Part shown: positions 6,694 through 11,197 of the stretch, in pieces | Layout: every line of letters begins with the position of its first letter | How positions within the stretch are numbered: position 1 is the stretch's first letter | Source: Escherichia coli 042 | Lineage (GTDB): Bacteria > Pseudomonadota > Gammaproteobacteria > Enterobacterales > Enterobacteriaceae | Length of the DNA: 64,000 nt | Reading direction: 5' to 3' (one strand) | NCBI RefSeq assembly: GCF_000027125.1 | Contig: NC_017626.1 | Notes under the pieces: model-generated | What the model was told of the DNA's origin: nothing | Databases searched by the model: none | The model's input: only the letters and a program-made list of their open reading frames with translations | Made by a program: the position numbers and the translations under genes

Positions 6694-7509
6694 TTATTGG
6701 TTAAATGGCGCTTCGTGTTTAAGAACTTTATCGATCACATCCAGTACGCCTTCACGGTTATTGGAGCCTGCCCGGTATTTTGCCGCTGCGACGACCGCGC
6801 TGCCGGCATTTTCCATTGCAAAACTAAAGCCTGCCTGACGCAGCATCTCAATATCGTTACCGCCATCGCCAAAGACCACCACTTCGCTGTCGTCTATTCC
6901 CCATAATTTCTGCAGTTGGCGAAGGCCATTGGCTTTATGTACGCCGGGGATAATCAGATCGATGCTGCCGTTGCCGGTGTGGACCGGCACCATAATATCG
7001 CCGATGGCCTCATGTAATGCTTTTTGTACTTGTGGAATCAGTTCATCGGAAAGATTCAGACCAAACTTAAAGAAGATATCTTCTAAGATGTCAAAGTTAT
7101 CGACGTATTCCAGACGGTGATAATACATTTCCGCCACCGTTTTCATGGCATCGTCATATTTTTTGAGTGTATAGGCGCTATTTTTTCCGCAGGCAATAAT
7201 TTCCACTTCCGGGCGCGTCAGCAAATGTTCCACGACAGTAGCAAACGCATCCTTCGACAGCTCGCCATTAAAAACATCTTTGCCTTCGCTCACTACCCAG
7301 CCGCCGTTTTCAGCCACAAAGGCAATTTCATTAGCAATTTCAGGGAAGAAAGAGATCAACTGATAATATTGATTCCCGCTGGCGACCACAAAGCGAATGC
7401 CTTGTGCTTTCATTTGCTGATACTGAGCCATAAACCGCTCACGGTTATAGGTTTTTTGATCGCTTAAGAAAGTACCATCCATGTCTACCGCAATTAATTT
7501 AATGCTCAT
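6694..7509 (-). CDS. ybjI: HAD-superfamily (Cof-like) phosphatase
   Basis: DxDGT motif (IAVDMDGTFL) at N-terminus. Confidence 0.88.
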   Translation of the reverse strand: MSIKLIAVDMDGTFLSDQKTYNRERFMAQYQQMKAQGIRFVVASGNQYYQLISFFPEIANEIAFVAENGGWVVSEGKDVFNGELSKDAFATVVEHLLTRPEVEIIACGKNSAYTLKKYDDAMKTVAEMYYHRLEYVDNFDILEDIFFKFGLNLSDELIPQVQKALHEAIGDIMVPVHTGNGSIDLIIPGVHKANGLRQLQKLWGIDDSEVVVFGDGGNDIEMLRQAGFSFAMENAGSAVVAAAKYRAGSNNREGVLDVIDKVLKHEAPFNQ

Positions 7510-8717
7510 CAACTATTCTCCATCGCCGTCTGCGTTTTGGTATCGGGTTTGGCGACGGCTTTCGCGACAATAGCCGCGAGAATAACCAGCGCCAGTACAA
7601 CCAGCATTGCACTACGTAATCCATAATGTTCGCCGAGATAGCCCAGCAGCGGCGGCCCGACGAGGAAAGCCAGATAACCGGTCGTTGCTACCACGCTGAC
7701 GCGGGTCGGTGCATCGGGGCCGGTATCGCTGGCGGCAGAAATGGTCAGAGGGAAGCCCAGCGAGGCACCTAGTCCCCAAAGTACAACAGACACTCCTGCG
7801 ACCCAGGCGCTATCGACAAAAATAATCAGCCCAATACCCAACGCCCCCATTAGCGCACTGGCCCGAACCACGGCAACGCGACTGTAACGGTCGATGAACC
7901 AACCGCCAGTGAAGCGTCCAACGGTCATCCCCAGGGTAAAACCGGCATAAATCAGCGAGCCGGAAGTGGGGCTAAAACCGTGACCGTCAACCATTAATAA
8001 GGGTAACCAGTCGTTGGCAGAACCTTCGGCAAAGGCCATCGCCAGCACCACAACACCAATCAGCAGCAACTGGATATCGCGATAAAAAGGTACGCCTTTT
8101 TCGCCATGCTGGGTGCCATCGGCAGCATTTTTGCCCGTACCGTCAGGGATTGCCTGAATGGCGATATAAATAGGCGCGATACCTACCAGCGCCGCCAATA
8201 AAATGTGCACCGTTGCCGGAACGCCAAAGGCCGTCAGTGCCATCCCGACACCAGCGCCTGCCAGCGTGCCCAGGCTATAAAAACCGTGCATCATCGGCAA
8301 AACCGTCTTATTCATTTCTCGCTCAACGGCAGCACCTTCAACGTTTATCGCCACTTCCGCAGAACCAAAACTTGCCCCAAAGACGCCGAGACCAACGGCA
8401 AAGAGCAGGGGCGATGTCAGCCAGAGTGCCAGACTTAGTATCATCATCCCGATCAATGCGCAGGACATCGTGACCAGGATGACATTACGCGTCCCAAAGC
8501 GTTTCACTAACCACGCCGAGCAGAGAATACCGCTCATTGAACCGATCGACAGACCAAAGAGGACTCCGCCCATTTCAGCGATCGAAACAGAAAGAATATC
8601 GCGGATAGCAGGCGTACGGGTTGCCCAGGACGCCATTAACAGGCCCGGCAAAAAGAAGAACATAAACAGCGCCCAGGTTCGGCGTTTCAATGCATTACGT
8701 GAAGAATTTACGGTCAT
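7509..8717 (-). CDS. ybjJ: MFS-type inner membrane transporter
   Basis: 402-aa polytopic membrane ORF; synteny. Confidence 0.85.
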
Positions 8718-8800
8718 AGATCACGTCAAAATAAGAAGAGGGAAGACAACATTAGCAAGGTTGTGTACATTTGTACACAATTGCAGAGAGAGGAAATGAC

Positions 8801-9337
8801 ATGCGTCGCGCTAACGATCCGCAACGGCGAGAAAAAATTATCCAGGCCACGCTGGAGGCGGTGAAACTTTATGGAATACATGCTGTTACGCACCGCAAAA
8901 TTGCTACCCTTGCCGGGGTACCGTTGGGGTCGATGACCTACTATTTTTCAGGAATTGATGAGTTGTTGCTGGAGGCGTTCAGCAGTTTTACTGAGATCAT
9001 GTCCCGGCAATATCAGGCATTTTTTAGCGATGTTAGTGATGCTCCGGGCGCATGCCAGGCTATCACCAATATGATTTACAGCTCACAGGTTGCAACGCCG
9101 GATAACATGGAGCTGATGTACCAGCTCTACGCGCTGGCTAGCCGAAAACCGCTATTAAAAACGGTAATGCAAAACTGGATGCAGCGCAGTCAGCAAACGC
9201 TCGAACAATGGTTTGAACCCGGAACCGCTCGCGCGCTTGATGCGTTTATTGAGGGGATGACGCTGCATTTTGTCACCGACCGTAAGCCGCTATCACGCGA
9301 GGAGATTTTGAGGATGGTTGAGAGGGTTGCAGGGTAG
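8801..9337 (+). CDS. rcdA: TetR-family transcriptional regulator RcdA
   Basis: N-terminal TetR HTH; start MRRANDP inside ORF 8771..9337. Confidence 0.88.
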
Positions 9338-9355
9338 TAGATAAATTTCAGGCAA

Positions 9356-9435
9356 CAAAAAACCCATCAACCTTGAACCGAAATGGCGGGGTTGATGGGC
9401 TCCACAAAATGGGGACATCAAAGAAAAGCAGTGGC
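9356..9435 (-). ncRNA. rybB: sigmaE-dependent small RNA RybB
   Basis: Minus-strand sequence GCCACTGCTTTTCTTTGATGTCCCC...GGTTGATGGGTTTTTT matches the RybB sequence I remember, including the terminator hairpin and U-tract; located between rcdA and ybjL as in K-12. Confidence 0.85.
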
Positions 9436-9511: not shown

Positions 9512-11197
9512 TTATCCTAATCCTGGCCATACCATGACGATGATTGTCCCTGCCAGCGTCAGCAGGACGTTGGCGATTGCGTAGGTGCCCGCATAGCCCA
9601 GCGCCGGGATGTTACTGCGAGCTGTATCACTGATGATCTCCATTGCCGGCGCGCAGGTGCGTGCGCCCATCATTGCGCCGAACAACAGTGCGCGGTTCAT
9701 TCGCAATACATAAGCACCGAACAAGAAACAGATAACCACGGGCACCAGACTGACAATCAATCCGGCAATCAACATTTGACCGCCAATTGCGCCCAGGCCG
9801 TTATTAATACCGCTACCGGCGCTCAGACCAACGCCTGCCATAAACACCATCAAGCCGAACTCCTTCACCATGCTTAATGCACCCTGCGGAATGTAACCGA
9901 AGGTCGGGTGGTTCGCGCGCATAAAGCCCAGCATGATTCCGGCGAATAACAACCCGGCAGCGTTCCCCATGCCGAAACTGAATGTGCTGAACTGGAAGGT
10001 GATCATCCCGATCATCAGCCCAATAACAAAGAAGGCGCAGAATGCCAGCAAGTCAGTGACCTGGCTGTGAATCGAGATAAAGCCGATGCGATCGGCGATG
10101 GTTTTTACGCGACGGGCATCGCCGCTGACTTGTAAAACGTCACCTTTGTTAAGCACGACGTTGTCATCAATCGGCATCTCAATCTGGCTACGAATGACGC
10201 GGTTAAGGAAGCAACCGTGATCGGTCAACTTCAGTTGTGCCAAGCGTTTGCCAACAGCGTTATGGTTTTTAACGACCACTTCTTCAGTGACGATACGCAT
10301 GTCGAGAAGGTCACGATCGAAAACTTCTTTGCCATTACGGAAACTGGGATCGAGTCGGGCGTGGGCGTCAGGATAGCCTACCAACGCTATTTCATCGCCC
10401 ATTTGTAGTACGGCATCACCGTCTGGATTTGCCAGAATCCCGTTACGCCGAATACGTTCAATGTAACAGCCAGTTTGTCGATAAATACCCAGTTCACGCA
10501 GATTTTTGCCGTCGGTCCAGGCCACCAGCTCCGGGCCGACGCGGTAGGCCCGGATCACCGGTAAATAAACCTTACGGTTGGCATCAGTGTCCAGGCCACG
10601 TTCGCGGGCGATTTGCTGGGCGCTGGTCTGTAAGTCCTGATGCTGCAATTTCGGCAAGTAACGCGCACCAACAATCAAACTCACCAGACCGATTAAATAG
10701 GTTAAGGCATACCCGAGGCTCAGATTATCCAGTGCCAGTGAGAGCTGCCTGCTTTCCATGCCGGAATGACGCAGTGTATCGCCAGCACCGACCAGAACCG
10801 GTGTTGACGTCATAGAGCCTGCTAACATACCGGCCGTCAGGCCAATATCCCAGCCAAACAGCTTACCTAACCCTAAGGCGATCACCAGCGCACTGCCAAC
10901 CATCACCAGTGCTAACATTAGGTAATTTTTCCCATCGCGAAAAAAAATGGAAAAAAAGTTCGGTCCGGCTTCGACCCCGACGCAGAAAATAAACAGCATA
11001 AAGCCAAGATTAAGCGCGTCGGTGTTAATGCTGAAATGTTGTTGGCCTAATAACAGCGATACGACTAAAACGCCAATGGAATTACCCAGTTGGATCGAAC
11101 CAAGTCGTAACTTTCCGAGACATAGCCCAAGCGCGAGGACCACAAATAATAACAGAATGTAATTCCCATTTAACAATTCGGCGACGTTTATATTCAC
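9512..11197 (-). CDS. ybjL: putative transporter YbjL with TrkA-C-like domains
   Basis: 561-aa ORF; synteny and size. Confidence 0.88.

Follow-up and report, generated by a model that had tools for sequence, protein, structure and literature searches.

The short spacer between the divergent genes ybjJ and rcdA of Escherichia coli 042 raises the question of which protein, if any, recognizes the near-perfect palindrome that it contains, and which of the two genes is primarily controlled through this site. We addressed this question in a stretch of 64,000 nucleotides (hereafter, the window), where an earlier note had described the palindrome as being in a textbook position for an autoregulatory operator of a TetR-family protein. 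The gene coordinates are those of the annotation of strain RM14516 mapped onto the window, the two being 100% identical across positions 8300-9400; the same stretch, 8300-9400, was found in 5418 of the 5426 complete E. coli genomes. The following genes surround the site:

6694..7509, minus strand: ybjI, second gene of the ybjJI operon (annotation; 1-nt overlap between its start and the ybjJ stop)
7509..8717, minus strand: ybjJ, divergent MFS transporter and repressed target (annotation; Pfam MFS_1)
8801..9337, plus strand: rcdA (ybjK), TetR-family regulator binding the site (annotation; Pfam TetR_N PF00440 and TetR_C_31 PF17940)
9354-9432, minus strand: rybB sRNA gene, located between rcdA and ybjL (Rfam RF00110, 105 bits; annotated at the same place in MG1655)
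9512-11197, minus strand: ybjL (mapped annotation)

The product of ybjI is a phosphatase, and the ybjJI operon is repressed by RcdA (PMC3535384); the single-base overlap of the ybjJ stop and the ybjI start at position 7509 suggests translational coupling within this operon.

Direct reading and comparison with the reverse complement confirm that the palindrome, TTGTGTACATTTGTACACAA (8761-8780), is self-complementary at 18 of its 20 positions. It consists of 9-bp arms flanking a TT centre, and the two central bases are the only mismatches to its own reverse complement. The palindrome, which corresponds to positions 887383-887402 of MG1655, lies within the 83-bp divergent spacer between ybjJ and rcdA (8718-8800), and its distance from the rcdA ATG, previously given as about 20 bp, is exactly 20 bp. 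Three features can be delineated in this part of the spacer:

8761..8780, no strand assigned: probable RcdA operator, two RcdA boxes TTGTGTACA in inverted orientation around a TT centre, matching the published palindromic RcdA box
8764..8777, no strand assigned: 14-bp core TGTACATTTGTACA, that is, TGTAC-N4-GTACA, identical in all 80 orthologous loci
8786..8796, plus strand: purine-rich Shine-Dalgarno region of rcdA, GAGAGAGGAAA (read directly)

The number of 20-mers in the 64-kb window that are palindromic at 18 or more positions is 7, compared to 2.4 +/- 1.3 expected from Markov-1 simulations, which translates to a chance expectation of about 0.003 per 83-bp spacer (2.4/64000 x 83). Six further 18/20 palindromic 20-mers are located at positions 2612, 13391, 21016, 25918, 38707 and 49638. 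The inverted pair TGTAC-N4-GTACA is present in a single copy in the 64 kb, even when one mismatch is allowed. Single half-boxes, TTGTNNACA, occur 11 times in the window against 8.3 +/- 3.5 expected, that is, at chance level, which rules out these scattered single RcdA boxes as additional targets. That the palindrome itself is more than a chance occurrence is settled by its conservation in 80 orthologous loci (see below).

The site is already known: the operator was described by Shimada et al. 2012 (MicrobiologyOpen), who renamed YbjK as RcdA (PMC3535384), so that the present finding is a re-discovery. In that study, genomic SELEX with purified RcdA repeatedly recovered the ybjJ-rcdA spacer, and the 72-bp overlap of the SELEX clones contains the palindrome TTGTGTACAttTGTACACAA, to which the palindrome in the window is identical at 20 of 20 positions. 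The site thus coincides with the RcdA box that Shimada et al. 2012 described in K-12 in its 20-bp sequence, its place between ybjJ and rcdA and the protein that binds it, and the window differs in strain background only. SELEX-clos, SELEX-chip, EMSA, AFM and DNase I footprinting were all applied to this spacer, and the ybjJ-rcdA probe produced the strongest gel shift among all probes, with more than 10 complexes (PMC3535384). At a low RcdA concentration, there was a single clear DNase I protection in the spacer, at the palindromic RcdA box, whereas at higher concentrations RcdA spread cooperatively along the DNA and formed large complexes (PMC3535384). As shown in this literature, purified RcdA binds the palindrome first and shields it from DNase I. 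The EMSA and footprinting with purified RcdA that the earlier note put forward as a check have accordingly been in print, with a positive result, and its proposal of an operator for the TetR-family protein RcdA is supported by the published binding to an identical sequence (PMC3535384).

The RcdA box unit, with the consensus TTGTnnACA or TTGTnTACA derived from six footprints (PMC3535384), is present in the window palindrome in two exact inverted copies, 8761-8769 on the plus strand and 8772-8780 on the minus strand. The genomic arrangement is also of the TetR type: the inverted repeat adjoins a gene for a protein with a TetR_N helix-turn-helix domain, and the divergent gene for the MFS_1 transporter YbjJ shares the same spacer. 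Together, these lines of evidence leave us highly confident that RcdA, a TetR-family regulator, uses the palindrome as its primary, high-affinity operator.

The published account contains one inconsistency on the location of this site: the running text places the 22 clones and the 72-bp segment with the palindrome at tfaX-appY, whereas the legend to Fig. 1 places them at ybjJ-rcdA (PMC3535384). A 34-bp query around the palindrome matched one place per genome in 5422 of the 5426 complete E. coli genomes and, in the records inspected, this place is between ybjJ and rcdA. The single genomic place at ybjJ-rcdA indicates that the Fig. 1 legend of PMC3535384 is correct, and the same count (5422 genomes), together with the legend, excludes that the palindrome also occurs at tfaX-appY.

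To delineate the conserved positions of the site, we collected 80 orthologous loci (RcdA identity 67-98%) in a protein-based scan with one genome per species, which covered Escherichia, Citrobacter, Salmonella, Klebsiella, Enterobacter, Kluyvera, Kosakonia, Raoultella, Lelliottia, Phytobacter and other genera. The core TGTACATTTGTACA is identical in all 80 loci, and the G immediately preceding it is kept in 79. The outer positions of the palindrome vary, with position 18 being C in 34 loci and T in 46. Set against the consensus of Shimada et al. 2012, the phylogenetic footprint obtained here has the inner GTGTAC...GTACA invariant and the outer TT variable. The 20-bp stretch that separates the palindrome from rcdA is unconserved across the 80 loci except for a Shine-Dalgarno-like purine run, a GAGG/GGAG-type motif that recurs ahead of the rcdA start codon in the orthologues. 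Some variation at the edge of the palindrome exists within E. coli as well: about 1163 of the 5422 genomes have at least 2 mismatches to the 34-bp query, and in two such genomes that were inspected, AC replaces GT at 8760-8761, so that T1, the outermost base of the palindrome, becomes C (CTGTGTACA...). A C at this outermost position is also found in 10 of the 80 other species.

Conceivably, the palindrome could be the site of another regulator that recognizes TGT...ACA sequences, namely LexA or CRP, given that it contains both TGT-N8-ACA and TGTGT...ACACA. The consensus is CTGT-N8-ACAG for LexA and TGTGA-N6-TCACA for CRP; in the palindrome, the outer C/G that define a LexA box are replaced by G/C, and the gap between the half-sites is 8 bp rather than the 6 bp of a CRP site. 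RcdA has also been reported to bind near sulA, which is a LexA target (PMC3535384); however, the conservation of the motif follows homologues of rcdA and ybjJ in distant taxa. We therefore reject a LexA or CRP site on the consensus motifs and regard such a reading as highly improbable.

Having assigned the palindrome to RcdA with high confidence, we turn to the gene that it serves. The divergent neighbour of rcdA is ybjJ in all 80 loci, and the palindrome is located 42-46 bp from the ybjJ start codon in 79 of these. The distance to the rcdA start spans 19-120 bp overall, being 19-23 bp in most genera and 53-120 bp in Salmonella, Klebsiella, Raoultella and their relatives (loci L022, L023, L025, L034, L042, L050, L055, L057, L061, L065 and L076), where the distance to ybjJ is unchanged. 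The combination of a fixed ybjJ distance and a variable rcdA distance argues that the site is anchored to the promoter side of ybjJ, such that its most conserved role would be the control of the transporter promoter.

Left of the palindrome, positions 8745-8759 form a second conserved block (GACAACnTAnCAAG, 80 loci). The pattern of invariant and free positions in this block fits a minus-strand extended -10 element of ybjJ: the TG and the T, A and final T of the -10 hexamer are kept in 80 of 80 loci, and the positions denoted 'n' are variable. The predicted elements are:

8749..8757, minus strand: predicted extended -10 of the ybjJ promoter, TGCTAATGT, pattern TGnTAnTGT (suggested by conservation)
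8772..8777, minus strand: predicted -35 of the ybjJ promoter, TGTACA, in the right half of the palindrome (80/80 loci, 17-bp spacer)

With these elements, transcription of ybjJ is predicted to start near 8742, and the operator would cover about -19 to -38, that is, the -35 element and the spacer, so that RcdA bound to the operator would shut RNA polymerase out of the ybjJ promoter. Repressors that act by steric hindrance commonly bind at such a position, which is also consistent with the derepression of ybjJ reported for the rcdA mutant, where it was observed both by Northern blot and with lacZ (PMC3535384). A scan of the 83-bp spacer with the sigma-70 consensus called no site at the set threshold, and the list of transcription start sites of Kim et al. 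2012 contains none between ybjI and ybjL; the geometry given here for both the ybjJ and the rcdA promoters is thus a prediction, drawn from the conservation of the spacer.

On the opposite strand, two hexamers stand out as the candidate promoter of rcdA:

8743..8748, plus strand: candidate -35 of the rcdA promoter, AAGACA (nnGACA in 78/80 loci, lost in two Salmonella loci)
8766..8771, plus strand: candidate -10 of the rcdA promoter, TACATT, within the operator palindrome (kept in 80/80 loci, with a 17-bp spacer to the candidate -35)

If these hexamers are used, rcdA transcription would start near 8778, and the operator would extend from about -17 to +3. A -10 element in this position would explain the invariance of the TT centre, which is not palindromic. 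Because the palindrome block overlaps the only conserved candidate promoter of rcdA, the site would be autoregulatory.

These predicted start sites also bear on the possibility that the palindrome functions as an RNA hairpin, in a leader, an attenuator or a terminator, instead of a protein-binding site. Either strand of the sequence can form a hairpin of 8-9 bp (-13.7 and -12.7 kcal/mol, z about -4.3), and the commonest change in the orthologues, C to T at position 18, would retain a G-U pair on the plus strand. However, any palindrome folds in this manner; given the predicted start sites, the palindrome would be untranscribed; the stem is A+T-rich, with no U-run after it on either strand, and a terminator scan made no call at the palindrome. 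Rfam has no match there either, the sole nearby match being RybB at 9354-9432. Furthermore, the four loop bases are invariant, which hairpins need not have, and a direct RcdA footprint has been published (PMC3535384). A role as an RNA hairpin is thus hardly credible, and we proceed with the operator.

The sign of the autoregulation is a more difficult matter. The activity of rcdA-lacZ falls markedly in the rcdA mutant, which was interpreted by the authors as "autogenous and positive control" (PMC3535384). The view of the palindrome as a textbook autoregulatory TetR operator is thus borne out for autoregulation, through the rcdA-lacZ result, but that result is at odds with self-repression: the published sign is positive, and the repressed target is ybjJI. 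The predicted geometry, in contrast, implies that RcdA would repress both promoters, against the published positive autoregulation of rcdA.

Negative autoregulation could be the main role of the site if bound RcdA occludes the rcdA promoter and shuts down its own synthesis, as in TetR, a reading implicit in the earlier note. This is what the overlap of the operator with the candidate rcdA promoter (nnGACA in 78 of 80 loci, 17 bp, TACATT in 80 of 80) would suggest, and the invariance of the non-palindromic TT centre makes more sense if these two bases also form the end of the -10 hexamer. Nevertheless, the only experiment has the opposite sign, with lower rcdA-lacZ activity when RcdA is missing, the spacing between the site and rcdA varies (19-120 bp) and the candidate -35 is gone in Salmonella, so that we consider self-repression as the main role possible but doubtful. 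Positive autoregulation, direct or indirect, accounts for the reporter results, namely, the decrease of rcdA-lacZ and the increase of ybjJ-lacZ in the rcdA mutant (PMC3535384), and the MG1655 record names RcdA a dual regulator. RcdA might, for example, silence a competing, overlapping ybjJ promoter and thereby free the rcdA promoter: the two predicted promoters appear to share the same ~36 bp back to back, such that polymerase would occupy one at a time, and it is conceivable, if speculative, that the derepressed ybjJ promoter out-competes the rcdA promoter in the mutant as an indirect effect. Yet the case for positive control is based on one reporter experiment, and a location over the sole conserved candidate -10 of rcdA is odd for an activator; we view positive autoregulation as rather unlikely.

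By analogy with other TetR repressors, a small-molecule ligand presumably frees RcdA from the operator. Acetate increased the binding of RcdA to other promoters, and TMAO binds RcdA with a Kd of 7 mM, but both are unlike classical inducers in behaviour; RegulonDB lists a dimer form of RcdA, with RcdA-TMAO and RcdA-Tris as inactive forms. A physiological connection comes from ionic liquids: rcdA loss-of-function mutants have been repeatedly selected for ionic-liquid tolerance (PMC5691611, PMC6174563), one of these studies links the tolerance to the MFS pump YbjJ, for which RcdA is the predicted regulator, and [C2mim]Cl induces ybjJ 3.2-3.7-fold (PMC4077768). The conserved job of the site might be to gate YbjJ, an exporter that helps determine how well production strains tolerate ionic liquids.

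Several characterized systems resemble this arrangement. In TetR/tetO and QacR/IR1, as at the RcdA site, an inverted repeat is located between the gene for a TetR-family protein and a divergent transporter gene, overlaps a promoter (an overlap that is predicted in the case of RcdA) and serves both genes. The operator sequence and the spacing of the half-sites in these systems are unlike those of the RcdA operator, and their targets are repressed and drug-released, whereas the self-regulation of RcdA is published as positive. EilR/eilO of Enterobacter lignolyticus ('Jungle Express', PMC6127294) is a further analogue, with a TetR-family protein that represses a divergently encoded MFS pump, a role in ionic-liquid tolerance and an operator embedded in both divergent promoters (PMC6127294). 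The eilO operator, AAAGTTGGACACGTGTCCAACTTT, is however unrelated and is present in two copies per spacer, with Tyr3, Arg32 and His47 making the base contacts. These differences in the operator and in the contact residues, along with the absence of EilR from the relatives of RcdA in the PDB, rule out that EilR/eilO and RcdA are the same system.

A match in the operator sequence itself was found in a different phylum. A full-text search with the 14-bp core matched one other paper, Bolla et al. 2012 (NAR; PMC3467072), on Rv3066, the TetR-like repressor of the Mmr efflux pump of Mycobacterium tuberculosis. A single Rv3066 dimer occupies each site, the operator IR1, TGTACATTTGTACA, is bound with a Kd of 4.4 nM, and the protein comes off the DNA in the presence of ethidium (PMC3467072). 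IR1 thus has the same 14 bp as the core of the RcdA palindrome at 8764-8777, and the Rv3066 EMSA oligonucleotide, CGAGCCTCCTTTGTGTACATTTGTACATGT, has 17 contiguous bp in common with the window, TTGTGTACATTTGTACA. The proteins are homologous as well: Rv3066 (PDB 3t6n) is similar to RcdA with an E-value of 6.7e-17 and belongs to the same TetR_C_31-type fold family, its HTH region is LSHRRVAAEANVPVGSTTYYF, and the recognition-helix motifs of the two proteins are near-identical (one of the pair being VPVGSTTYYF). The modelled DNA contacts of Rv3066 are R15, H37, R38, T52 and Y53 (PMC3467072), which correspond, in our own mapping from the sequences read side by side, to R9/R10, H31, R32, T46 and Y47 of RcdA, the same amino acids in each case. 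By analogy with Rv3066, the RcdA dimer would read the TGTAC/GTACA half-sites in successive major grooves.

Both regulators control an adjacent efflux transporter. The systems differ in that the mycobacterial pump, Mmr, belongs to the SMR rather than the MFS family, and rv3066 is located downstream in the same operon rather than divergently. Furthermore, M. tuberculosis has two adjacent operator copies, IR1 and IR2, whereas the palindrome is single in the E. coli window, and Rv3066 binds as one discrete dimer that is released by ethidium, unlike RcdA, for which cooperative spreading, with many complexes on long probes, has been reported. No open-access paper was found that discusses RcdA together with Rv3066, although subscription papers on the structure of RcdA may already note the identity of the operators.

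Between these two systems, the operator can be traced through additional homologues. Among 1.84 billion representative proteins, we identified 2221 relatives of RcdA, and about half of the 148 new matches listed, which are 28-61% identical to RcdA, retain the motif HRx[IV]A...VPLGSxTY[YH]F; in a further search, the best 120 protein homologues of RcdA were from Enterobacteriaceae only. We then examined the contigs of ten distant relatives with 28-44% identity, nine of which have a G+C content of 57-71%. The motif TGTAC-N4-GTACA, with at most one mismatch, is present within 260 bp upstream of the regulator gene in seven of the ten (L086, L087, L089, L090, L092, L094 and L097), in several of these twice, compared to 0.05 loci expected from shuffling; one of the three relatives that lack the motif had just 50 bp of upstream sequence. 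The divergent gene encodes a clear YbjJ homologue (42-57% identity) in six distant loci, with a seventh matching at 25%.

The occurrence of the motif together with YbjJ-like partners in distant relatives points to an old, widespread cassette of ybjJ, rcdA and the operator, whereas Rv3066 combines the same operator with a different pump. We tentatively suggest, with somewhat less than even confidence, that the palindrome belongs to an old operator type, TGTAC-N4-GTACA, which is common to the subfamily, travels with RcdA/YbjJ-like cassettes far beyond Enterobacteria and is base-identical in the Rv3066 system. If so, RcdA would fundamentally be a local repressor that a ligand releases and that controls the YbjJ exporter, the global role described for it in biofilm formation and csgD control would be secondary, and competition between fully overlapping divergent promoters would indirectly produce the positive autoregulation that has been reported. 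The link to Rv3066 and Mmr further suggests candidate inducers of RcdA, namely, cationic aromatic compounds, as well as a structural model for operator recognition. Crystal structures of RcdA itself are available (5x5i, 7acl, 7acm and 7aco), and the protein encoded in the window is one residue apart from the PDB chains 5x5i, 7acl and 7aco, with an N/D difference at position 90.

Finally, one of the 80 orthologous loci (L072) comes from a record titled 'Chryseobacterium sp. 18061' and has a typical enterobacterial ybjJ-operator-rcdA organization, with an RcdA protein of 67% identity and the exact 20-bp palindrome; this assembly is probably mislabelled or contaminated.
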